Assembly: GCA_022013085.1 (NCBI GenBank)
Contig: JAKLQX010000002.1
Span: forward strand, 1 to 47,209
Reading direction: 5' to 3'
Source of the DNA: Candidatus Omnitrophota bacterium
Lineage (GTDB): Bacteria > Omnitrophota > Gorgyraeia > Gygaellales > Profunditerraquicolaceae
DNA length: 47,209 nt
A program made the position numbers and the translations under genes. This document shows, piece by piece, positions 2,784 to 41,728 of the stretch (its first letter is position 1; each line of letters starts with the position of its first letter). The notes beneath the pieces are model-generated. The model made no database searches and had not been told where the DNA came from. It saw nothing but the letters and a program-made list of their open reading frames with translations.

Positions 2784-5000
2784 TTAAAGGTAGCTTTCAA
2801 TTGCCCTGCTCCAGGCCTTGTAAAAATCATTAACCGTTTTATTGATTAACCGGTTAATAACCAGCCTATTGCCTCCGACCTTGCCGATTACGGCAAGCGG
2901 AGTTTTATTCTTCTTAGCGATTTGCAATATCTTTTTTACGTCTTTAGCTTTAGCGCTCAAGATAATCCTGGACTGAGACTCGCCGAATAAAAGCGCATCC
3001 TTCCTTATTTTCCCCGAATCCAGGTTAATTACTGCGCCTATTTTTTTAGCAGGATTGCTCATGCAGGCTTCGGCTAAGGCTACGGCTAAACCGCCTTCGG
3101 AACAATCGTGCGCAGATTTAACTAAACCTTTTTCTATAGCCTCCAGTGCCGTCTTCTGTACGCTCTTTTCCAACTTTAAATCTAAAGAAGGACAAGCACC
3201 CCTCTTTAAACCATGGACGGTTTTTAAATATTCGCTGCCGCCTAATTCTTCTTTATTTTTACCGAGCAGCAGAATTACATCCCCGCTATTTTTAAAATAC
3301 AGAGTTACGGCTTTGGATTTATCTTTCAACAATCCCACCATGCCTACAATCGGAGTAGGATCAACTGAACCCTTAGGGTTCTCGTTGTTAAAACTGACGT
3401 TGCCACTGACTACCGGCGTATTCAAGCTCCGGCAGGCCTTGCTAATACCTAAAACCACCTGCTTAAACTGCCAGAAAACTTCCGGATTCTTAGGATTACC
3501 GAAGTTTAACCCGTCGGTAATCGCTAAGGGCTTGGCGCCTGAACAGACGATATTCCTGGCTGCTTCAGCTACGCAAATCTGCCCGCCTACAAAAGGATCG
3601 AGATAGCAATAGGTAGAGTTACAATCCGTGGTAGCGGCAATCGCTTTTTTGGTTCCGGGGACAAGCGCTATTCCGGCATCAGAGCCGCCGGGTGCGACCA
3701 CTACAGCCTTGGCAACTTTGGCATCGCCATGTTTAAATACCCATCCTTTACTGGCAATGGTTGGATTGCTTAAAAGCTTAATAAGCGTGCGATTACAATC
3801 CCCGGGCTCTTTTATACTGGCTAAATTTAGCTTATTAACCTTAGCTAAATATTTCGGCCTGGAAGCTTTACGCTGATATACCGGCGTTTCAACCAAGGAA
3901 GCGGCAGGCACTTCTGCGACTACCTCTCCGTTTTCCTTAACCCGCACCATACCGTCGCCGGTAACGTGGCCGATTACATCCACAGGAACCTTCCATTTAG
4001 AAAGGATGTTTTCTACTTGTTTTAATCTTTCCTTAGTAACAATCACTAACATCCTCTCCTGTGATTCAGAAAGCATAATTTCATACGCATTCATGCCTTC
4101 TTCTTTGCGGGGAACTAAGGCAATATCAATTTCTATACCTGTATTCGCCTTATAGGAAGTCTCACAGGTGGAACATATTAACCCGGCAGCGCCCATATCC
4201 TGCATACCGACAACCAAACCCTTATGTATTAATTCCAGGCAAGCCTTTCTAAGAATCAATCCCATTTTGGGATCGCCTATAGCCACAGCTGAGCTGTTTT
4301 TATTCGCTTCTGCGCTTAATCCTGCGGAGGCAAAAGCAGCTCCCGCTACGCCGTCCCTTCCAGTTGCTCCGCCGATAATCAAGACTAAGTTGCCCACTCC
4401 ACTAGCCCGGGCTTTAACTAATTCCTTATTCTTCACTACACCTACGGTCATGGCATTAACCAGGGGATTGCCTTCAAAAGATTCGTCAAAATAAATTTCA
4501 CCGCCTAAAACAGGCATCTCTACTATATTAGCGTAATCAGTAAAACCGCGGATAATATTCTTGAATAAAAATTTGACCCGGCTGTTTTCCAACCTGCCAA
4601 GGCGCAAAGAATCCAAAAGGCCTATTGGCTTAGCACCCATGGTAAAGATATCCCTGATGCAGCCGCCGCCGCCGGTAGCTGAAGCAGCATATGGCTCGAC
4701 TGCCGAAGGATGATTATGTGATTCAACCTTAAACACTACGCCCATACCGTCGCCGATATCTACAACTCCGGCATTTTCGCCGGGCCCCTCGATTACCTGT
4801 TTGCCTTTGGTAGGAAAAAGTTTCAGTACGGGTTTTGAATTCTTATAAGAACAATGTTCGCTCCACATCGCTGAAAAAAGGCCTAATTCCGTATAGTTGA
4901 GTTCGCGGCCGAGGCGTTTTTTAATCATATTATACTCTTCCATGGTCAGGCCTTCTTTTTCGATTATCTCTTTTGTTACGATGATATCGTTACCAGACAT
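2784..5000 (-). CDS. purL: phosphoribosylformylglycinamidine synthase subunit II
   Basis: 738 aa. It has the small-PurL layout and motifs (VESHNHPSAVEPY, GGATGRDG) and lies in a pur operon. Confidence 0.95.
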   Translation of the reverse strand: MSGNDIIVTKEIIEKEGLTMEEYNMIKKRLGRELNYTELGLFSAMWSEHCSYKNSKPVLKLFPTKGKQVIEGPGENAGVVDIGDGMGVVFKVESHNHPSAVEPYAASATGGGGCIRDIFTMGAKPIGLLDSLRLGRLENSRVKFLFKNIIRGFTDYANIVEMPVLGGEIYFDESFEGNPLVNAMTVGVVKNKELVKARASGVGNLVLIIGGATGRDGVAGAAFASAGLSAEANKNSSAVAIGDPKMGLILRKACLELIHKGLVVGMQDMGAAGLICSTCETSYKANTGIEIDIALVPRKEEGMNAYEIMLSESQERMLVIVTKERLKQVENILSKWKVPVDVIGHVTGDGMVRVKENGEVVAEVPAASLVETPVYQRKASRPKYLAKVNKLNLASIKEPGDCNRTLIKLLSNPTIASKGWVFKHGDAKVAKAVVVAPGGSDAGIALVPGTKKAIAATTDCNSTYCYLDPFVGGQICVAEAARNIVCSGAKPLAITDGLNFGNPKNPEVFWQFKQVVLGISKACRSLNTPVVSGNVSFNNENPKGSVDPTPIVGMVGLLKDKSKAVTLYFKNSGDVILLLGKNKEELGGSEYLKTVHGLKRGACPSLDLKLEKSVQKTALEAIEKGLVKSAHDCSEGGLAVALAEACMSNPAKKIGAVINLDSGKIRKDALLFGESQSRIILSAKAKDVKKILQIAKKNKTPLAVIGKVGGNRLVINRLINKTVNDFYKAWSRAIESYL

Positions 5001-6760: not shown

Positions 6761-7894
6761 ATGTTAAGAATATTACGCAACAAGAAAACCGCTAAAAAAA
6801 TCTGGATCGGCCTGGCCATAATCATCATCCCCGCCTTCGCCCTTTGGGGATTTGGCAGTTCAGGTAGTAGCCGCGAAGAAAATATGCCTGCCGGCAAAAT
6901 CTTCGGCAAAAACGTCTCCACCCTGGAATTTAAAAAAGCCCTGGCTGCCGCAAAAACCGCGGCTATCTTGCAGTTCGGAGATAAATTCTCTGAGGTTGAA
7001 AAATATCTAAACTTAGAGACGCAGGCCTGGGAAAGATTGATACTTCTAGAGGAAGCAAAAAGGCGTAAATTAAGCATAAACGACCGAGAGGTCGTTGACA
7101 CCATTCAAAAAGCGTCTTATTTCCAAAACAAAGGTGCCTTTGATAATAAAACATATATGGAAATCCTGCGTTATGTCTTTCGTTTGCAACCGCGCACTTT
7201 CGAAGAACAGATGCGCCAAAACCTGATTCTGGCTAAACTTTACAACCAGATTACCGAAGGCATAAAAATAGAGGATAGCCAAATCCGCCAGGAATGGCTA
7301 AAAACAAATGAGGAGTTAAGCATTTATTACATTGCCAGTTTATTTGCTGAATTTGCCAAAAAGATTAAACCGGACAATAAAAAAATCTCCGCCTATTATA
7401 ATAAAGAAAACATCATTAAAGAACCTCCAATCGTAAATAAAGAAAAGAAACCCGCTCGTGTTCCAGAATCAGCAGAAGTAAAAAACAGGATTAAAGAAAC
7501 CATCATTAAGGAAGAATCAGCCAAAACCGCCCAGGATAAAATAAATGAGTGTGCTGAAAAATTAAAAAGCAAACCGTTTGATCAGGTAGTCAAAACCAGC
7601 AAGCCTGGTTTAAAGACCGGCCAAACTAAATTTTTTAAATCTAGCGATAAAATTGACAACCTCGGTCCAGCGCAGATCTTCTGGGAAACGGCAAAGAAAT
7701 TAAAAGAAAACCAGGTAAGCGATATATTTTCTGACGCTGCAGGCTACTACATTATTAAGCTTAAAGCAACCAAGCCTGTTGATGAAGACAAATTCACTAA
7801 AGAAAAGAATGAACTTGGTGAAAATTTATTAAACCAGGAGAAAAACAAGGTTTTTGCTAAGTTTACCGAAGAGATCAAGAAAAAAGCGCAATAA
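6761..7894 (+). CDS. PpiD/SurA-like periplasmic chaperone with an N-terminal membrane anchor
   Basis: The N-terminus MLRILRNKKTAKKIWIGLAIIIIPAFALWG is typical of PpiD-like proteins (short basic head plus one TM segment). A SurA-N-like helical region follows. I did not recognise a clear parvulin signature. Confidence 0.55.
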   Translation: MLRILRNKKTAKKIWIGLAIIIIPAFALWGFGSSGSSREENMPAGKIFGKNVSTLEFKKALAAAKTAAILQFGDKFSEVEKYLNLETQAWERLILLEEAKRRKLSINDREVVDTIQKASYFQNKGAFDNKTYMEILRYVFRLQPRTFEEQMRQNLILAKLYNQITEGIKIEDSQIRQEWLKTNEELSIYYIASLFAEFAKKIKPDNKKISAYYNKENIIKEPPIVNKEKKPARVPESAEVKNRIKETIIKEESAKTAQDKINECAEKLKSKPFDQVVKTSKPGLKTGQTKFFKSSDKIDNLGPAQIFWETAKKLKENQVSDIFSDAAGYYIIKLKATKPVDEDKFTKEKNELGENLLNQEKNKVFAKFTEEIKKKAQ

Positions 7895-7909
7895 TAGATT
7901 GTAAAACAT

Positions 7910-7956
7910 GGGGACGGTTCTATTTAATTAAATAGAACCGTCCCCTTTATTTTTTT
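7910..7956. terminator. bidirectional intrinsic terminator between convergent genes
   Basis: Perfect 36-nt palindrome GGGGACGGTTCTATTTAA|TTAAATAGAACCGTCCCC (7910-7945) followed by TTTATTTTTTT on the plus strand. The minus strand has the weaker tail ATGTTTTAC. Confidence 0.8.
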
Positions 7957-8799: not shown

Positions 8800-9678
8800 T
8801 TAAGCTTCTACCTTAAGATTATACTTCTTTATGTTATTATCTGCAATCTCCTGTACCTTTTTAATCTCTTCAGGATTATTAAGCAGATGTTTAAATCTAC
8901 CCTGGCTCTTTAAATATTCCTCTACTGGCTTAGGAACAATCTGTTTACGGTTAGCTAAAACACCGAATTCATACTCAAATAAAGGATAAAGCCCGGTCTC
9001 CACTGCTAATTTTGCTACCGGTAACATCTGATTAGTCTCATGTCTCCAGCCTAATGGACAAGGAACATGTATTTGGATATATTTAGGGCCTTTAATAGAA
9101 ATGGCTTTTTTTACTTTGCGCTGTAAATCCTGCGGGAAACCCGCTGAAGCTGTAGCAACATAAGGAATGCCATGTGCTAGACAAATCTCCGGCATGGGTT
9201 TTTTAGGACAGATATTTCCTGAAGAGTTCACCCCCAGAGGGCTAGTAGTAGTATTCGTATCAAATGGAGTAAGCCCGCTTCTCTGCACTCCGGTATTCAT
9301 ATAAGCTTCGTTATCATAGCAAACATACAAAATATCATGGCCTCGCTCAAGCATACCGCTCAAAGCTTGTAAGCCAATATCAGCAGTTGAGCCATCTCCG
9401 CCTTGAGCAATAACATTAGTTACATCTTTTTTACCTAAATATATAAGTGCTGCTTCAATGCCTGATGCCACCGCAGCAGAATTCTCAAATAAAGAGTGAA
9501 TCCAGGGCACTCCCCAGGCAGTTTCAGGATATTTTGTAGAAAAAACCTCCAAACAACCAGTATTATTAGCAATAATAGTATTTGCCCCGGCTGCCTCAAT
9601 AACTAAACGCGCAGCAATGGCTTGTCCGCATCCGGCACATGCTGTATGTCCAGATTTAAATAAAGGGCTATTCTCCAT
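8800..9678 (-). CDS. porB: 2-oxoacid (pyruvate/2-ketoisovalerate):ferredoxin oxidoreductase, beta (TPP-binding) subunit
   Basis: GHTACAGCGQ near the N-terminus, the TPP motif GGDGSTADIG...YDNEAYMNTG, and operon context. Confidence 0.9.
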   Translation of the reverse strand: MENSPLFKSGHTACAGCGQAIAARLVIEAAGANTIIANNTGCLEVFSTKYPETAWGVPWIHSLFENSAAVASGIEAALIYLGKKDVTNVIAQGGDGSTADIGLQALSGMLERGHDILYVCYDNEAYMNTGVQRSGLTPFDTNTTTSPLGVNSSGNICPKKPMPEICLAHGIPYVATASAGFPQDLQRKVKKAISIKGPKYIQIHVPCPLGWRHETNQMLPVAKLAVETGLYPLFEYEFGVLANRKQIVPKPVEEYLKSQGRFKHLLNNPEEIKKVQEIADNNIKKYNLKVEA

Positions 9679-10855
9679 ATTCTTCCTTAAGCAATTCCGG
9701 TTTTAAATCCACAAAATCTGAGTTGACTTCTTTAGCACCCAATCTTCTAAATACTTCATGAATAGTTTCTAATGTGATATCTCTTCCGCCTAAACCACCA
9801 ACAAAACTACTGATTATCTTTGGCCCTTTTTTCTTGCCAAAAAACGCTGCTTTCATCTCAACAGCAACCGGGGCATAGGCACCTAAAGAAACTGCCTTAT
9901 CTAAAACTGCTACCTTGGTAACATCTTTTAAAGCTTCATAAACCCGAGCATAGGGAAATGGCCGATAAGTGATAATGCGTAAGAGCCCAACTTTTTTGCC
10001 TTTTGCGCGCTGCTCATCAATTACTTCCTTAATCGTCCCACAAACTGAACCCATAGCTACAATTACCTTTTCAGCGTCTTTAACTTGATACTCTTCAACC
10101 AGCAAATCTTTATAATCTCGGCCGAAAACTGACAAAAACTCCTTACTTATCTCAGATAAGTAAACCAATGATTCTTTCATGGTTTCCTGGATGGCAAAAC
10201 GCGTCTCCATATAATAGTCTGGATCAGCTAAAAGCCCCATGGAAATCGGTTCATTAGTATCTAATTTATATAAAGCCTGATAACTAGGCAAAAATTTATT
10301 TACTTTATCCTGCTCTGGGATATCCACTGTTTCCATGCCGTGAGTCAAAATAAACCCATCCATACAAACCATTACCGGCAACATCACCCGTTTGTCTTCA
10401 GCTAAACGGTAAGCGACAAGATGAAAATCTGCTGCCTCTTGGTTATCTTCGGCATAAATCTGAAACCATCCTGAATCACGCAATGATATAGAATCCTGCT
10501 GATCATTCCAAATATTTATCGGAGCACTTATTGCGCGATTTGCGCAAGTCATTACAACCGGTAGGCGCATTCCAGCAATATTAAAAACTACTTCCTGCAT
10601 ATAAAACAAACCTTGTGAGCTAGTCGCAGTATAAACGCGTACCCCGGTTGCCGATGCGCCCAAAACTACCGAAGCAGCTGAGTGTTCGCTTTCTACATTG
10701 ACAAATTGCGAAGTTAATTCGCCATTTGCCACCATCTGCGCCAGGCCTTCAACAATATGCGTCTGAGGTGTTATAGGATAGGCAGAGATCACTCCTGGTT
10801 TACAGGATTTGATTATTTCTGCTACCGCGCGTGATCCCTCTAGGAATTCCTTCAC
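9668..10855 (-). CDS. porA: 2-oxoacid:ferredoxin oxidoreductase, alpha subunit
   Basis: 395 aa with the AYPITPQT motif. The start is a GTG at 10855-10853 that lies partly inside the repeat arm. Confidence 0.9.
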   Translation of the reverse strand: MKEFLEGSRAVAEIIKSCKPGVISAYPITPQTHIVEGLAQMVANGELTSQFVNVESEHSAASVVLGASATGVRVYTATSSQGLFYMQEVVFNIAGMRLPVVMTCANRAISAPINIWNDQQDSISLRDSGWFQIYAEDNQEAADFHLVAYRLAEDKRVMLPVMVCMDGFILTHGMETVDIPEQDKVNKFLPSYQALYKLDTNEPISMGLLADPDYYMETRFAIQETMKESLVYLSEISKEFLSVFGRDYKDLLVEEYQVKDAEKVIVAMGSVCGTIKEVIDEQRAKGKKVGLLRIITYRPFPYARVYEALKDVTKVAVLDKAVSLGAYAPVAVEMKAAFFGKKKGPKIISSFVGGLGGRDITLETIHEVFRRLGAKEVNSDFVDLKPELLKEEYGE

Positions 10856-10928
10856 CCCGCACCTTCTTCCTTATTTAATTTATCAAACCGTATAGCCTTA
10901 ATAGTTGAATATTTAGAAGGTGCGGGGT
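10854..10928 (-). repeat. palindromic-ended intergenic cassette, copy A (porD|porA junction)
   Basis: Perfect 14-bp inverted arms ACCCCGCACCTTCT (10854-10867) and AGAAGGTGCGGGGT (10915-10928) around a 47-nt AT-rich core. The arms are identical in copy C, and one arm is identical in copy B. Confidence 0.9.
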
Positions 10929-11201
10929 TCATTTATCCTCACCTTTAGATTCTTCAGGCACCATCGCAATATCTTTTTTAGGGCAGATATCCGCGCATAC
11001 CCCGCAACCTTTACAAAAATTATAATCCGCCCAAAAAGCATTCTTTTCTTTGCCATGTACACAGCCTTCCGGACAAATCATCAAACACATCCTGCAGGCA
11101 ATGCAATCTTTATGCAGATAATGCGGACGATACTGCACTCTCCAGCTACCAGTCTTATCCCCTTTACTCTTTGATGGTTTTACAGTTAGCGGACCAAACA
11201 T
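10929..11201 (-). CDS. porD: 2-oxoacid:ferredoxin oxidoreductase, delta (2x[4Fe-4S]) subunit
   Basis: CIACRMCLMICP and CKGCGVCADICP motifs; 90 aa. Confidence 0.9.
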   Translation of the reverse strand: MFGPLTVKPSKSKGDKTGSWRVQYRPHYLHKDCIACRMCLMICPEGCVHGKEKNAFWADYNFCKGCGVCADICPKKDIAMVPEESKGEDK

Positions 11202-32594: not shown

Positions 32595-33764
32595 TTATAA
32601 CTTAGCTGCTTGTTTCTTTAAAGCTTCTACCTTATCCGTCTTCTCCCAGGTAAATTCCGGTTCTGGCCTGCCGAAATGCCCATAACTAGCCGTCTTCCTG
32701 TATATAGGCCGGCGTAAATTCAAGGACTCAATAATCCCCTTAGGCGCAAGTTCAAAGTTATGCCTTACTAACTTCACCAATGCCTCCTCTGAAATCACCG
32801 AGGTACCATCGGTATCTACCATAACTGATAAAGGATCCGCCCGGCCAATAACATAAGCAAGCTGTACAAGGCATTTCTCTGATAAACGGGCAGCCACAAT
32901 ATTTTTCGCAATATAACGGCACATATAAGCTGCAGAACGATCAACCTTAGTAGGGTCTTTTCCGCTGAATGCACCGCCTCCATGAGCCACAGCACCGCCA
33001 TAAGTATCCACGATTATCTTTCTTCCAGTCATCCCCGTATCTGACTGCGGGCCACCGATAATAAATTTTCCCGTCTGATTAACAAAATATTTGGTGTTCT
33101 TATCCACCCAACCTTTTAAAATCGGACCGGCTACTTCTCTGATAATCTCACTGCGCGCTTTTTCAGTGATGCGTTTTCCGCTTTTATCTAAAATATCCTC
33201 AGTATGCTGAGAAGCTAACACAACAGAATCCACACGCACGGGTACGCCATTATCATACTCAACAGTAACTTGAGTTTTACCATCCGGGCCAAGATATTTT
33301 AAAATTTTATTCTTGCGTACATAGGCTAAGCGCATGGCAAGTTTTTGCGCAAGCATAAGAGCTAACGGCATCAACTCTTTCGTCTCTTTACAGGCATAGC
33401 CAAACATCAAACCCTGGTCCCCTGCTCCGCCGGTATCTACTCCTTGCGATATATCTGGAGATTGGGCATGAATAGCATTAAGAATAGCGCAAGTATTAAA
33501 ATCAAAACCATACTTAGGATGATCATAACCTACCTCTTCAATTATTTTCCTGCTTATTTCATGCACATCAATAAACTTACGGGTAGTTATTTCTCCGCCT
33601 ACAATCAAAAGCCCCATAGTCACATAAGTCTCGCAGGCAACACGAGAATAAATATCATTTTTTAAACAGGCATCTAATACCCCATCAGAAATCTGATCAC
33701 ATAGCTTATCTGGATGGCCTTCGGTTACTGACTCTGAAGTAAAATAATGTTTACGCACTGCCAT
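32595..33764 (-). CDS. metK: S-adenosylmethionine synthase
   Basis: [12 protein letters not shown] and [16 protein letters not shown] motifs. Confidence 0.95.
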
Positions 33765-33776
33765 GACTCCTCCCGA

Positions 33777-34517
33777 TTAGTTAGGTAAATATTTTTTTGC
33801 CGCGTTTAAATACTTATAATCCCCAATATCAAACCAAGTACCATTAAAAACATATCCATAGACATCTGTTCTTGTTTTTAACCAAGCAATATAACCACCC
33901 GTAGCATCGGTTTGCTTTTTTTTATCTTGTAAATACTCCTCGATCAAACTTAAGAAATTTTTGGGCATATAGTATAAACACATAGCCACGAGGTTAGATT
34001 GCGGGTACTTAGGTTTTTCAATAAAGCTCACAACTTTTTTCTGACTATTTAATTTAGCTACCCCATAACGACTAGCGTCTTTTTTGTACTTTAATTTGTA
34101 TAAACCTACAGTAGCTTGCGAAATATTTTTCTTAGAAAAAGCTAAAAATTCGCTTAAAGAGCCACTAAACAAATTATCCCCACCAATTATTAAAAGATCC
34201 TCTTTAACCCTTTGTTTCTTTATAGCAAAATTTATATCGCCTATAGCGCCTAATCTATCTTGATTGTTTCTAGTTAAATCATCTATTATGGTAATCTTCT
34301 TGGGCGATTTAATTGATTTTTTCCACAAACGGAAAAACTTGATAAATTTGCTATTAGTAATAAGATAAATCTCATCAATAACGGAAACCCTATCTAATTT
34401 ATCAATTATATAATCTACAATCGGCCTACCCTTAACTTCAAGCAAGGGTTTTGGATATTCCTTGGTTAGTGGATAAAGCCGAGTAGCATAACCGGCAGCT
34501 AAAATCAGCGCCTTCAC
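33777..34517 (-). CDS. sugar-1-phosphate nucleotidylyltransferase family protein
   Basis: MKALILAAGYATRLYPLT is the NTP_transferase signature. The GTG start (34517-34515) lies partly inside the repeat arm. Confidence 0.7.
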   Translation of the reverse strand: MKALILAAGYATRLYPLTKEYPKPLLEVKGRPIVDYIIDKLDRVSVIDEIYLITNSKFIKFFRLWKKSIKSPKKITIIDDLTRNNQDRLGAIGDINFAIKKQRVKEDLLIIGGDNLFSGSLSEFLAFSKKNISQATVGLYKLKYKKDASRYGVAKLNSQKKVVSFIEKPKYPQSNLVAMCLYYMPKNFLSLIEEYLQDKKKQTDATGGYIAWLKTRTDVYGYVFNGTWFDIGDYKYLNAAKKYLPN

Positions 34518-34666
34518 CCCGCACCTTCTTTCTTAATTAATTTATCCAGCACTTTCTTATTATTCATTTGTTTAAACCGTAAGTTTTTAATGCTTGAATC
34601 CTTAGAAAGTGCTGGATTTATCAAACCGCATTACTTCAATAGTTAAATATTTAGGAAACTCAGGGT
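34516..34666 (-). repeat. palindromic-ended intergenic cassette, copy B (ptsI|nucleotidyltransferase), with one decayed arm and a nested insertion
   Basis: The arm at 34516-34529 is identical to those of copies A and C. The distal arm at 34653-34666 (AGGAAACTCAGGGT) is degenerate. Once 34546-34615 is removed, the core aligns with copy A. Confidence 0.85.
34546..34615. mobile_element. nested 70-bp MITE-like sibling element with 12-bp terminal inverted repeats and an ATTTAT(C) flanking direct repeat
   Basis: CCAGCACTTTCT...AGAAAGTGCTGG, flanked by ATTTAT at 34540-34545 and 34616-34621. Copy A shows the uninterrupted site TTAATTTATCAAACCG. Confidence 0.55.
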
Positions 34667-34671
34667 TCATT

Positions 34672-36402
34672 CTATTTTAAAATCTCCGCTAATTTATTTC
34701 TGGCAAACTCTTCTATCTCTGTACCAGTTGAAAACTCCAGAGCTTTCCTGGCAATCTCCTGAGCAGCCTTAAATTCAACAGAACGAATAATATACTTTAA
34801 CTCCGGGATTACCTGTGGCGGCATACTAAACTCATCCAAACCTAATCCCAGAAGTATAAGCGCCAAAGACGGCTCACCAGCCATCTCTCCACACATAGCT
34901 ACTTTAATTTTAGCCTGATGTGCTGAATCAATAACATTCTTGATCAACCTTAATACCGCCGGATGCGCTGGCTCATAAAGATAAGCGACCTTTTCATTAC
35001 CGCGATCCACTGCCAAAGAATATTGGATCAAATCATTTGTCCCAATGCTAAAAAAATCCGCTTCCTTGGCTAAAATATCGGCAGTCATCGCTGCAGAAGG
35101 AACTTCAATCATCACCCCTACTTCGATTTTATCATTGAAATCCAAGCCTTTTTGCCTCAGCTCATCTTTTGCTTCATTCAGAAGCTTGTTCGCTTGCCAT
35201 AATTCCTCTATTCCAGAGATCATCGGATACATAAGCTTCAAGTTACCATGCGCAGAAGCCCTTAAGATTGCGCGTAATTGCAGTTTAAATATATCTGGCC
35301 GGGCCAAACAAAATCTAATCGCTCTCCAGCCTAAAAACGGCTGCATTTCCTGCGGAATTTTAAACTGTGACAAAAACTTATCCCCACCTAAATCCAAAGT
35401 ACGGATCACCACCGAATGCCCATTCATCTCTTGGGCAACATACTTGTAAGCCTGATAATGTTCTTCTTCAGTAGGAGAATCCTTACGGTTCATGTAAAAA
35501 AACTCCGTACGGTATAACCCAATTCCTTCGGTACCATGTAACTTCGCTGATGGAACTTCATCAGGAAATTCGATATTCGAATTTATCAATACTGTTCTAC
35601 CATCAATAGTAACTGCAGGAAGATCTTTAGCCGATAAGAATATATCGGTTGTGCCTTTTAATTTTATAAGTTCCTGCTCATAATTCTTAAGTGTTCCCTC
35701 ATCAGGATTAATAATTACCACGCCTGTTGTGCCGTCAACGATAAGGATATCCCCAGATGCAACTTTAGCAGTAATCCCCTCTAAGCCTACAACTGCTGGG
35801 ATCTCAAGGCTCTTAGCCATTATTGCCGTATGCGAAGTCTTACCCCCTATATCTGTAACAAAAGCAGCCACATTTCTCTTATACAACGCCACAGTATCCG
35901 ATGGAGACAGATCATGGGCTACAATAACCGCCCGCCCTTTTAAATCTGCCAAACTTTTCTTCTCTCGGCCTAAAAGATTCCTTAATATCCTTTTACCAAC
36001 ATCATTAATATCAGCAATACGCTCCTTAAGATATTCATCTTCTATTTTTGAGAAAACACTGATATATTTCTTTAAAACCTCTGAGAAAATATAGGCAACA
36101 TTAACTTGTTCTTTTTTAAGACGCGAAATCACCTCTTCGATAAGCATGCGATCTTCTAAAACCAAAAGATGCGCATCAAAGATCTGTGCCTCCTCCTGGC
36201 CCATATCTGAACTGATTCTTTTCTGCAGATCGATAATTTCGCGACGGGTTTTAATCAACGCTTCTTCAAAAAGCTGAATCTGTAAGGGGATATCTTCCCA
36301 GGTAATCGCACTAGAAACAACCATAAACTCCTCCGGCCCAAGCTTATAAACCGGCCCGATGCTTATCCCGCTTGCCGCAGCGATACCTTTTAACTGGATC
36401 AT
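34672..36402 (-). CDS. ptsI: phosphoenolpyruvate-protein phosphotransferase (PTS enzyme I)
   Basis: 576 aa; GGKTSHTAIMA (active-site His), GTNDLIQY and CGEMAG motifs. It has no GAF domain. Confidence 0.9.
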   Translation of the reverse strand: MIQLKGIAAASGISIGPVYKLGPEEFMVVSSAITWEDIPLQIQLFEEALIKTRREIIDLQKRISSDMGQEEAQIFDAHLLVLEDRMLIEEVISRLKKEQVNVAYIFSEVLKKYISVFSKIEDEYLKERIADINDVGKRILRNLLGREKKSLADLKGRAVIVAHDLSPSDTVALYKRNVAAFVTDIGGKTSHTAIMAKSLEIPAVVGLEGITAKVASGDILIVDGTTGVVIINPDEGTLKNYEQELIKLKGTTDIFLSAKDLPAVTIDGRTVLINSNIEFPDEVPSAKLHGTEGIGLYRTEFFYMNRKDSPTEEEHYQAYKYVAQEMNGHSVVIRTLDLGGDKFLSQFKIPQEMQPFLGWRAIRFCLARPDIFKLQLRAILRASAHGNLKLMYPMISGIEELWQANKLLNEAKDELRQKGLDFNDKIEVGVMIEVPSAAMTADILAKEADFFSIGTNDLIQYSLAVDRGNEKVAYLYEPAHPAVLRLIKNVIDSAHQAKIKVAMCGEMAGEPSLALILLGLGLDEFSMPPQVIPELKYIIRSVEFKAAQEIARKALEFSTGTEIEEFARNKLAEILK

Positions 36403-36668
36403 AACTCTTCCTCGCTATTAATAATCTTTTCTAACTCAGCCAAAGCCAGCTCTGCATCCTGGCCGTCTGCTTCGATAATAATAAGGCTACCATTTTCAGC
36501 ACCCAGCATAAGAATACCCATTATAGACTTGCCATTAACCTCTTCAATATCTCTGCGCACAGTAATACGCGAGTCAAATTTATTAGCTATCTGCACAAAT
36601 AAAGCAGCTGGCCGGGCATGTAAGCCTTGCTTATTCTTTACGATAAGTTCTTTTTTAATTAAAGCCAT
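36399..36668 (-). CDS. ptsH: phosphocarrier protein HPr/NPr
   Basis: 89 aa; GLHARPA (His15) and VNGKSIMGIL (Ser46). Confidence 0.85.
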   Translation of the reverse strand: MALIKKELIVKNKQGLHARPAALFVQIANKFDSRITVRRDIEEVNGKSIMGILMLGAENGSLIIIEADGQDAELALAELEKIINSEEEL

Positions 36669-38615: not shown

Positions 38616-38689
<74 letters not shown>

Positions 38690-38716
38690 GTTTTTTATTC
38701 TTTTCACCCTAAGAAC

Positions 38717-38801
38717 TGGTGGGCGGAAGAGGATTTGAACCTCCAAGGGTTGCCCCAATAGCTCCTAAGGCTATCGTGTCTGCCAATTTCACCATCCGCC
38801 C
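38717..38801 (-). tRNA. tRNA-Leu(UAG), type II, with encoded CCA
   Basis: Acceptor GGGCGGA/TCCGCCC, a 3-bp D stem, anticodon arm ATAGC-CTTAGGA-GCTAT, a 13-nt variable arm, T arm GGAGG-TTCAAAT-CCTCT, then ACCA. Confidence 0.9.
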
Positions 38802-38836
38802 AGAAAAGGGCCACTGCTTGATTCTTACTGAATTTA

Positions 38837-38909
38837 TGAGCCTCCCGCGACTCGAACGCGGCACAACCACATTAAAAGTGTGGTGCTCTACCGGATGAGC
38901 TAGAGGCCC
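38837..38909 (-). tRNA. tRNA-Lys(UUU)
   Basis: GGGCCTC-TA-GCTC-ATCCGGTA-GAGC-A-CCACA-CTTTTAA-TGTGG-TTGTG-CCGCG-TTCGAGT-CGCGG-GAGGCTC-A; 73 nt. Confidence 0.95.
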
Positions 38910-40217: not shown

Positions 40218-40742
40218 TTATTCGCCGATCTTGTAGCGGATAAACCTGCGGATAACAATCTTTTCGCCGATTTTTGCTACAATACTACCTAAATAATCCT
40301 TAATAGTTATACTCGGGTCTTTAAGAAAAGCTTGCTCAAATAAACAATTATTTTTGTAATACTCTTCATCGCTTTTATCATGTTGCAAAAGCTCCGCCGG
40401 AACATCTTCTTTTTGGATATAAACCGGGCTGGTTGCGGCAATTTGCATTGCTAAATCTTTGGTAAACCTGGCGAAATCTTCGTTCTTCGCTACAAAATCA
40501 GACTCACAGTTTGTTTCCAGTAAAACCCCGATCTTGTTGCCATGATGGATATAAGCATCAACGCGGCCTTCTTTTGCACTGCGGCCCTGTTTCTTAGCAG
40601 CAATCTCTAAACCCTGTTTACGCAATAATATCACTGCTTGTTTGATATCTCCTTTAGCCTCTTCCAAAGCCTTTTTACAATGCGCAATACTAGAGCAAGT
40701 AATATCTCTTAATTCTTTAATCGCATTCACTGAACTCTTCAC
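40218..40742 (-). CDS. tsf: elongation factor Ts (short form, 174 aa)
   Basis: VNAIKELRDIT...CKKALEEAKGDIKQAV is the UBA-like N-terminus. It lies in rpsB-tsf-pyrH-frr order. The GTG start (40742-40740) lies partly in the repeat arm. Confidence 0.85.
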   Translation of the reverse strand: MKSSVNAIKELRDITCSSIAHCKKALEEAKGDIKQAVILLRKQGLEIAAKKQGRSAKEGRVDAYIHHGNKIGVLLETNCESDFVAKNEDFARFTKDLAMQIAATSPVYIQKEDVPAELLQHDKSDEEYYKNNCLFEQAFLKDPSITIKDYLGSIVAKIGEKIVIRRFIRYKIGE

Positions 40743-40835
40743 CCCGCACCTTCTTTCTTATCTAATATTATTTTATATTTATCATCCCTTAAACCTTCAG
40801 CATGTTAAACAACGAATATTTAGAAGGTGCGGGGT
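40741..40835 (-). repeat. palindromic-ended intergenic cassette, copy C (rpsB|tsf junction)
   Basis: The arms at 40741-40754 and 40822-40835 are identical to copy A. The 67-nt AT-rich core shares its ends with copy A (CTTAT..., ...GAATATTT). Confidence 0.9.
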
Positions 40836-41728
40836 TACCCTTTCTTTCTCAATTTCGGCTTTATCTCACCGGCTGACTTTAGGCGAGCTTTCTTGGCTGC
40901 TTTTGCTTCTTCAGTAAGCGGCTGGCTATCCTCAACAATCTCTTCAATCTCTTTAATCTTGATTTCTTCTTCCGGGAGAACTTCTAAAATAATATCCTGC
41001 TTTGTTTCTTCTACCTTAACCCCTTCCTGAGAAAGATAAGACAAAAATTTCTTCCTTCCTTCAATAATTGTATCCGCGATAATTGCAGCTACTGTTCGGA
41101 TGGACTTCGTAGCATCATCATTACCAGGTATAGGGTAATCTATTAAATCAGGATTAGAATTAGTATCAATCAAACCAATTATAGGAATTCCCAGCCTGCG
41201 CGCTTCTTTCACAGCAGTTTCTTCTTTCTTCGTATCGACAATAAAAGCTGCTTTAGGCATACGTTCCATAGACACAATACCTGAAAAGTTTTTATTCAAC
41301 TTGGCTAACTCTTTTTCCAGGCGCGCTACTTCTTTTTTGGTCAACTTTTCAAATATTCCATCAATACGCATCTTCTCAATCTCTTTTAAACGATTAATAC
41401 TTTTCTTAATCGTAGTAAAATTGGTAAGCATACCACCTGGCCAACGGTCAGTAACATAGTACATGCCGCTTCTTATGGCCTCCTGCTTAATCACATCCTG
41501 AGCCTGTTTTTTGGTACCAACAAAAAGGACAAATTCGCCTTTTGAGGTTATATCCATTAAGAAATCACGAGCAGCATTAACGCACTCCTCAGTCTTCTCC
41601 AGGTCAATAATGTAAATACCGCTTCTTGAACCAAAAATAAATTTCTTCATCTTAGGATTCCAGCGTTTAGTCTGGTGCCCAAAATGTACACCTGCTTCTA
41701 ACAACTGTTTAATTAATTCTGATGGCAC
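40835..41728 (-). CDS. rpsB: 30S ribosomal protein S2 with an acidic/Lys-rich C-terminal extension
   Basis: [19 protein letters not shown] is the S2 signature. GTG start; 297 aa. Confidence 0.95.

Follow-up and report, generated by a model that had tools for sequence, protein, structure and literature searches.

Mycobacterial interspersed repetitive units (MIRUs) are repeats of 40-100 bp located inside operons that appear to insert at start codons and carry an open reading frame (ORF) with a -4 nt overlap (Supply et al. 1997, as cited in the relevant passages of PMC12548453 and PMC3184786). Delihas (PMC3184786) adds that they have imperfect inverted repeats, are flanked by tetranucleotide direct repeats and are known from filled as well as empty sites. 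The stretch analysed here, 47,209 nucleotides of contig JAKLQX010000002.1 from a groundwater Omnitrophota bacterium (hereafter the window), contains members of a family of short non-coding repeats. One of these, copy C, lies at a sugar-nucleotidyltransferase (NTP-transferase) gene and is interrupted by a diverged family member, the nested unit. In operation and structure the family is a MIRU-like MITE, a miniature inverted-repeat transposable element. It is very probably a mobile repeat family that inserts at start codons, in which copy C is an old insertion, the nested unit a younger one, and translational coupling would keep the target gene expressed.

MIRUs share with the family start-codon insertion, a -4 overlapping ORF, tetranucleotide repeats, filled and empty sites, frequent tandem arrays and the lack of a known transposase. 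Among the surveyed family copies, 75 of 88 are at a start codon in an operon and co-oriented with the gene and 29 of 65 have an internal ORF with the -4 overlap, and tetranucleotide repeats and tandem arrays are present. Unlike MIRUs, the family has ends that are perfect 13-bp inverted repeats forming a Shine-Dalgarno / anti-Shine-Dalgarno pair, and its elements rebuild the start codon with their own last base. MIRU hosts are Actinomycetota, whereas the family is found in Omnitrophota and Planctomycetota, and its base composition, with AT-rich loops, is also different. The sequences seem unrelated, judged without a MIRU consensus, and no common descent is claimed.

Bacterial MITEs such as Correia/NEMIS in Neisseria, ERIC/IRU, RUP and MITEAba12 resemble the family in small size, lack of coding capacity, terminal inverted repeats, a target duplication of constant length and high copy number, and also in their nested and polymorphic insertions, co-transcription with neighbours and RNA hairpins. 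The family elements are short (MITEs being under about 500 bp) and without a transposase gene, and have terminal inverted repeats, a duplication of fixed length and dispersed multiple copies. Known MITEs have an identifiable parent insertion sequence (IS) and duplications of their own (TA for Correia, 9 bp for MITEAba12) and are not systematically located on start codons, whereas 85% of the family copies occupy a start codon in a single orientation and no related autonomous IS was found in the window or in ∼600 kb of loci. Rickettsia palindromic elements (RPEs) are palindromic mobile repeats tolerated in or at coding sequence because expression is preserved, and their in-frame insertions within genes end up in the translated protein. 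The family elements differ in staying outside the protein, with a short frame that ends at NTGA. RPEs receive a brief mention in the passages of PMC3184786 concerned. Neisseria REP2 and related Borrelia upstream repeats carry, like the family, a ribosome-binding site and start codon fused to the downstream ORF (PMC3184786), but REP2 adds a promoter and 5′ untranslated region and has no terminal inverted repeats with duplication, no stranded old start and no coupled short ORF. Literature searches found no published description of the arm sequence, or of MITEs in Omnitrophota or Planctomycetes, and the repeat family is apparently undescribed.

The nested unit in copy C

Copy C is an old, half-decayed insertion exactly on the NTP-transferase gene's start codon, and a diverged sibling has inserted into its loop at TAAA. 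The parts are as follows.

34545-34616, minus strand: nested unit, 72 bp, with perfect 13-bp arms TCCAGCACTTTCT / AGAAAGTGCTGGA, oriented as its host
34541-34544: first copy of the nested-unit target duplication, TTTA on the plus strand (TAAA in gene sense)
34617-34620: second copy of the nested-unit target duplication, TTTA
34517-34665, minus strand: host copy C, 149 nt with the nested unit and 73 nt without, between ptsI and the NTP-transferase gene
34517-34529, minus strand: intact gene-proximal 13-bp arm of copy C, CCCCGCACCTTCT on the plus strand and AGAAGGTGCGGGG in mRNA sense
34653-34665, minus strand: decayed distal arm of copy C, AGGAAACTCAGGG, with 8 of 14 matches to the intact arm
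34513-34516: proximal copy of the copy C target duplication, TTCA on the plus strand (TGAA in gene sense)
34666-34669: distal copy of the copy C target duplication, which with T34670 makes the stranded old ATG (CAT, 34668-34670)
34602-34670, minus strand: short frame from the old ATG, MNPEFPKYLTIEVMRFDKSSTF and a stop, truncated by the nested insertion
33777-34517, minus strand: NTP-transferase gene, a 246-aa NTP_transferase ORF

An earlier examination of the letters alone (the sequence-only reading) had described an intact gene-proximal arm, a decayed distal arm and a 70-bp insert, and these observations hold. The arm ACCCCGCACCTTCT is intact at 34516-34529, and of the 14 positions of the distal arm AGGAAACTCAGGGT (34653-34666), 8 agree with the intact AGAAGGTGCGGGGT. 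The sequence TTAATTTAT followed by CAAACCG is unbroken in copy A (10875-10890) and is split in copy C by 34546-34615, an insert with a perfect 12-bp inverted pair and ATTTAT(C) on both sides. However, the 6-7 bp duplication then thought to differ from TGAA is a boundary effect of drawing the arms as 12 bp. The ends CCAGCACTTTCT (34546-34557) and AGAAAGTGCTGG (34604-34615) grow to 13 bp with T34545 and A34616, and with the 13-bp arms of the family the duplication is the 4-bp TAAA. The nested unit obeys the same rule as the hosts, namely 13-bp arms and a 4-bp duplication.

The nested unit is of the same length class as copy A (72 and 73 nt) and shares 73% identity with it over the full length. 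Their loops are 70% identical compared with 58 +/- 5% for shuffles, and the arms differ by two compensated pairs. It falls in a 73-nt 'A-type' subfamily that is also represented in four other loci (L007, L038, L050 and L074). Copy C minus the nested unit is 84% identical to copy A.

The proposal that the insert is a diverged sibling inside an older copy is borne out by L001, X5 and L073, which lack the insert; public relatives were reached by a look-up of the transferase protein in public assemblies. L001 (NCBI GCA_030655815.1) is the same species, with 97.5% identity over 7.6 kb and 99.8% over 1.3 kb, and its alignment to the window breaks precisely at 34546/34616. The empty site reads ...GGTTTGATAAATTAATTAAG..., or at greater length ...AATGCGGTTTGATAAATTAATTAAGAAAGAAGG..., which is the host copy with its decayed arm minus 76 nt. 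TAAA (gene sense; TTTA on the plus strand) is present once, and the filled site is 76 nt longer (72 + 4). In run X5, depth is zero over 34552-34614 and one contig enters 34616 from TCTTAATTA, which is again the empty site. L073, a syntenic outgroup species of Omnitrophota with 77-81% nucleotide identity, has a family copy on the transferase start without the insert, indicating that the empty state is ancestral, as opposed to copy A being a deletion derivative. Its distal arm at the matching position still reads ACCTCGCACCTTCT, with one mismatch.

At least 5 independent assemblies, with contigs of X1, X2, X4, X6 and X7/X8 (groundwater, subsurface and freshwater metagenomes from several studies), span the filled site and match the window throughout the nested unit. 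The Logan contig L002 matches 6,235 bp of the window at 100% identity, nested unit included, and L089, a contig from a JGI metagenome, also spans the filled site. An assembly artefact, which the sequence-only reading had wanted excluded, is therefore not the source of the nested insertion, and the insertion is still polymorphic among strains of one species. That reading had also set two observations against itself, a nested unit without any further copy and junctions without support. The junctions are well supported, and no second copy was found anywhere searched.

When the 72-nt nested unit was compared with four runs at 80% likeness, one contig per run was recovered. A scan of metagenomes for the exact nested arms gave 17 stretches, in which a matching loop was present only in L089 (same locus), and the remainder are different palindromes that have the 12-mer in common. 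Palindromes of 60-95 nt with exact CCAGCACTTTCT / AGAAAGTGCTGG arms but unrelated loops are present in L080, L084, L090 and L094-L096 (JGI contigs), in L081 and L026, and in L087 and L035. Those of L035 and L087 are flanked TAAA/TAAA, and some of the contigs concerned bear the label Kaiserbacteria or Deltaproteobacteria. Distant relationship and convergence could each account for these palindromes.

Host copies and the family across genomes

The window contains two further host copies, both with intact arms.

10855-10927, minus strand: copy A, 73 nt, between a ferredoxin gene (10929-11201) and porA (9668-10855)
10851-10854 and 10928-10931: TTCA flanks of copy A
40742-40834, minus strand: copy B, 93 nt, between rpsB (40835-41728) and tsf (40218-40742)

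That the family has been mobile more than once, as the sequence-only reading proposed, is confirmed by empty sites for the whole of copy C (X3 and X4) and for copy A (X3 and X6). Contigs of X3 and X4, from more divergent strains, join 34512 to 34666 and skip 153 nt, with 4 ambiguous letters. The resulting allele, ...TAGAATGAAGGCGCTG (gene sense), has an ATG start and a single TGAA. Likewise, contigs of X3 and X6 join 10855 to 10933, skipping 77 nt (73 + 4), and the alleles ...GATAAGTGAAGGAATTCC and ...AAGTGAAGGAATTCC include TGAA once. The strains lacking host copies C and A show roughly 90-95% identity. At both host sites, what the filled allele has beyond the empty one is the element and a second TGAA, and including the nested unit there are filled/empty pairs at three sites, each differing by the element and 4 bp.

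An nhmmer profile search recovered only the three host copies and the nested unit as family members in the window, and a 17-mer from the arm occurs 5 times where 0.09 occurrences are expected. All three host copies sit on the start codon of an operon gene and are co-oriented with it; the sequence-only reading had recognised the cassettes and missed both this position and the rebuilding of the start. Four copies lie within 47 kb, contigs are 6- to 25-fold deeper over the arms than over the flanks, and several loci are present per metagenome-assembled genome. The proximal flank of copy B is TTCA, but the distal flank is TTA (40835-40837), the rpsB stop TAA, and not TGAA. A loss of 1 nt following insertion would be consistent with this, and no old ATG is left there. 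Polymorphism of copy B is not interpretable, as the joints in X3 and X6 carry unknown intervening sequence.

The family was surveyed in 185,579 species-representative genomes with a single pattern that fixed only parts of the arms, which gave 76 loci and 88 arm pairs. The roughly 90 copies are nearly all in metagenome-assembled genomes of Candidatus Omnitrophota or Planctomycetota (Phycisphaerae and Planctomycetia), and the few matches in Ferroplasma, Melainabacteria and Saccharibacteria look like chance. Elements are 60-130 bp long, mostly 70-95 (measured copies, 59-127 bp), with 13-bp terminal inverted repeats YCCCGCACCTTCT...AGAAGGTGCGGGR that are perfect in most copies, weaker subterminal inverted repeats (TATTCA / TGAATA) inside the terminal arms, and a 4-bp target duplication. 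The only ORFs in them are stop-limited frames of 8-44 codons. The outermost arm pair is C-G in 64 copies and T-A in 18, and two-sided compensated changes were found at four positions of the arms.

Identical 4-nt flanks are present in 67 of 88 copies, 51 of them TGAA. The pattern put no constraint on the flanks, so these observations are unbiased. The flanks co-vary, as TGGA/TGGA in five copies, TGAG/TGAG in three, and further TTAA, TGTA and TTGA pairs, which identifies them as a target duplication and not a motif carried by the element. Copies sit almost only at translation starts of the ATGAA type and in one orientation. A start codon is formed at the junction in 75 of 88 (GTG in 59, ATG in 15 and TTG in one), and the ATG at position -5 upstream of the element is kept in 56 of 88. 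The genes opened in this way include rpmJ (four copies), prs, porA and tsaE (three each), gatB, tsaB, nifS, pgsA, topA, radA and others. However, about 10% of copies are at ordinary intergenic sites with other T..A-type duplications, and these, together with the nested unit at TAAA, indicate that insertion is not strictly dependent on a start.

Some genes were hit in distant lineages by copies with unrelated loops, namely rpmJ (L013, L023, L024 and L049), prs (L005, L072 and L075), porA (window copy A, L019 and L054) and tsaE (L025, L027 and L053). Such repeated use of the same housekeeping genes suggests recurrent insertion rather than inheritance. Head-to-tail arrays of two or three elements are present in L038 (5660-5810), L058 (2176-2410), L059 (1140-1439) and L074 (about 7820-7911). 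The units have a 4-nt junction in common (GTGAA or GTGAG), and the arrays look as though the start rebuilt by one copy had served as the insertion site of the next. A very short, almost loopless degenerate variant, ATGAACCCCGCCCTTCCTAAGAAGGAGCGGGAGCAGAAAGGAAGAGCGGGGTGAA, is on a gene start in L071 (about 7040-7110).

In 23 of 88 copies the 3′ arm recurs internally in imperfect form (AAGGTGYGGGG), in most cases with (A)TGAATAAGAAAG after it, and none has an internal motif resembling the 5′ arm. This internal copy is located in the loop ∼20-25 nt after the distal arm in L004, L025, L027, L033, L034, L045, L046, L060, L071 and others, and gives the distal arm two possible pairing partners. This decoy arm could be a relic of a tandem dimer or a switch for alternative pairing.

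Rebuilt starts and predicted coupling

At starts of the ATGAA type the duplicated TGAA strands the old ATG upstream, and the last arm base (G or A) together with TGAA forms a new GTG or ATG. The new start lies just behind a purine-rich Shine-Dalgarno sequence of the element, composed of the proximal arm and the adjoining AAGAAAG. At copy C, the spacer between ptsI and the transferase gene is 154 nt and in gene sense contains the ptsI stop TAG, an A, ATGAA, the decayed arm CCCTGAGTTTCCT, the loop, the intact arm AGAAGGTGCGGGG and TGAAGGCGCTG. The GTG start of the transferase (CAC at 34515-34517) consists of the last G of the arm and the TG of TGAAGGCGCTG, so the proximal arm both bears the Shine-Dalgarno-like AAGAAAGAAGGTG and gives the G of the new start.

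The hairpins computed for copy A, a further copy and the nested unit have energies of -31.7 (z = -5.6), -33.8 and -22.9 kcal/mol (z = -6.7), respectively, with z from about -5.5 to -6.7. Of 75 copies, 43 have an element length of 1 mod 3. The frame that begins at the old start is free of stops in 32 of 75, compared with 1 of 75 and 10 of 75 for the other frames, and shuffling of the loops leaves 8.9 +/- 2.8 stop-free, with none of 2,000 shuffles reaching 32. It runs stop-free to an NTGA overlap in 29 of 65 copies. A conserved peptide gene was considered and rejected, as the loops vary, the frames differ in length, and constancy is limited to the MNPAPS and KEGAG residues encoded by the arms.

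These features point to a mechanism in which the arms would pair in the mRNA and hide the new ribosome-binding site and start. Ribosomes entering at the old ATG would translate the short frame (MNPAPSK...KEGAG and a stop) through the hairpin, and termination at the NTGA overlap would lead to re-initiation on the real gene or expose its ribosome-binding site. Exposure by unfolding and re-initiation are the two classical models of translational coupling set out in the part of PMC12548453 that treats them. Expression of the target gene would be largely preserved, making the insertion tolerated and nearly neutral.

In copy C, the proximal arm would have been kept as the ribosome-binding site and start of the gene, while the dispensable distal arm decayed. 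The same asymmetry is seen in L022 (about 4637-4670) and L029 (about 7582-7620), where solo proximal arms (AGAAGGTGCGGG + ATG), lacking any recognisable distal arm, lie directly on gene starts and have the look of fully domesticated remnants. L027 (2563-2600) has a duplicated proximal arm on a gene start.

Read by eye, the L001 empty allele appears to encode a 26-codon leader, MNPEFPKYLTIEVMRFDKLIKKEGAG and a stop, that ends in a GTGA overlap with the gene start. The nested insertion cuts the copy C leader to 22 codons, ending 85 nt upstream of the start, and would break the coupling at NTGA. Presumably the break can be tolerated, as the ribosome-binding site is no longer strongly sequestered by the decayed arm. 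A 36-codon TTG-initiated frame (34514-34624, minus strand) crosses the nested unit in the usual family phase (xNPALSK...) and ends at the same GTGA overlap, and the family stop-free frame is thus kept though the old leader frame is broken.

Alternative explanations and meaning

Such hairpins might also be cis-regulatory RNAs of the host, that is, Shine-Dalgarno-sequestering stems for coupling, thermosensing or protein binding that evolved in place or were spread by gene conversion. Arms that are almost invariant across two phyla, a ribosome-binding site and start codon inside the proximal arm, the high stability of the hairpins, the alternative pairing permitted by the decoy arm in 23 of 88 copies, and the presence of copies at rpmJ, prs, porA and tsaE in several lineages would all fit this explanation. 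However, alleles at three sites among close strains differ by exactly an element and 4 bp, the flanking 4-mers co-vary, and nested, tandem and non-start intergenic copies exist. In addition, the loops are unconserved, the downstream genes are functionally unrelated, and an Rfam 15 scan of the window at gathering thresholds returned three tRNAs only, leaving the repeat family unmatched. In place of insertion, regulatory origin is therefore considered unlikely, and exaptation after insertion is compatible with a mobile family.

For the nested unit itself, the filled state at 34545-34616 could be ancestral, with L001 and X5 derived from it by precise excision or slippage, which would make the polymorphism a loss and not a recent gain. 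Hairpins between short direct repeats are prone to precise deletion, and the nested unit is a singleton for which no donor copy was found. Against this, the host copy of L073 has no insert, and the nested arms are perfect while the distal arm of the host is decayed, which indicates that the nested unit is the younger. Excision is rather improbable on these grounds, and either way the unit must first have arrived by insertion with a 4-bp duplication. The short intergenic palindrome and the fixed tetranucleotide that adjoins its ends in most copies also recall other classes of palindrome, namely REP/BIME mobilised by RAYT, palindrome-associated elements of the IS200/IS605 type, or an integron attC 'cassette'. 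Membership of any of these is extremely improbable. The target duplication varies with the site and empty sites exist, whereas HUH-type single-strand transposition is not known to make a true site-varying target duplication. There is no GTAG head, no RAYT nearby and no transposase among the 10 window ORFs. The RYYYAAC...GTTRRRY cores of attC are absent, including any GTTRRRY core, and the flanking genes are housekeeping genes in conserved synteny and not integron cassettes.

Several points weigh against a MIRU-like mobile family. The window and ∼600 kb of related loci yielded neither a transposase nor a full-length partner bounded by these ends: a Pfam scan of 10 window ORFs gave no match to a transposase family, no long-range arm pairs were found, and nhmmer profiles of the ends over all loci returned only short elements and solo proximal arms. 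No further copy of the nested unit with at least 80% identity was present in four metagenomes, JGI contigs or GTDB species genomes, and no donor was found. A perfect duplication is missing in 21 of 88 copies, and copy B is also without one. The survey pattern needed both arms and under-sampled decayed copies, and the taxon labels of metagenome-assembled genomes may be imprecise. Targeting and selection both fit the bias to start sites, and the data do not separate them. That the short frame is translated, that the hairpin forms and that the two genes are coupled in this way are steps that we infer from sequence.

A stronger version, in which the element propagates itself as a 'translation-start cassette', reaches start codons by a dedicated homing mechanism without a linked transposase, confers obligatory hairpin-gated initiation coupled to an upstream ORF and uses the decoy arm (23 of 88) as a pairing switch, is a minor possibility. 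If true, it would be a mobile, cross-phylum module of translational control in Omnitrophota and Planctomycetota.

As a MIRU-like mobile family, the repeats would be a second, independent example of the MIRU strategy, in which a start codon is entered, the old start becomes that of a short coupled ORF and the ribosome-binding site is rebuilt. Such convergence points to a general survival route for mobile DNA in gene-dense genomes. The three filled/empty sites, one of them nested, are population-level evidence of a small repeat still moving in uncultured, streamlined bacteria, and what makes the family noteworthy is its wide distribution in poorly known phyla, its continuing activity and its neat mechanism. 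Its perfect Shine-Dalgarno / anti-Shine-Dalgarno arms offer a natural system for setting RNA unfolding against re-initiation as models of coupling. For annotation, many GTG starts that follow GGTGCGGGG in metagenome-assembled genomes of Omnitrophota and Planctomycetota would be rebuilt starts, and 25-45-codon 'MNPAPSK...' ORFs would be by-products of the element.

The genes around copy C are all on the minus strand, and gene identities in the window were assigned by Pfam. Those beyond the transferase gene are as follows.

36399-36668, minus strand: HPr gene
34672-36402, minus strand: ptsI
32595-33764, minus strand: metK

Three tRNA genes are clustered at 38616-38909 on the minus strand, between a phosphotransferase system (PTS) EIIA-like gene and the frr/pyrH/tsf block.

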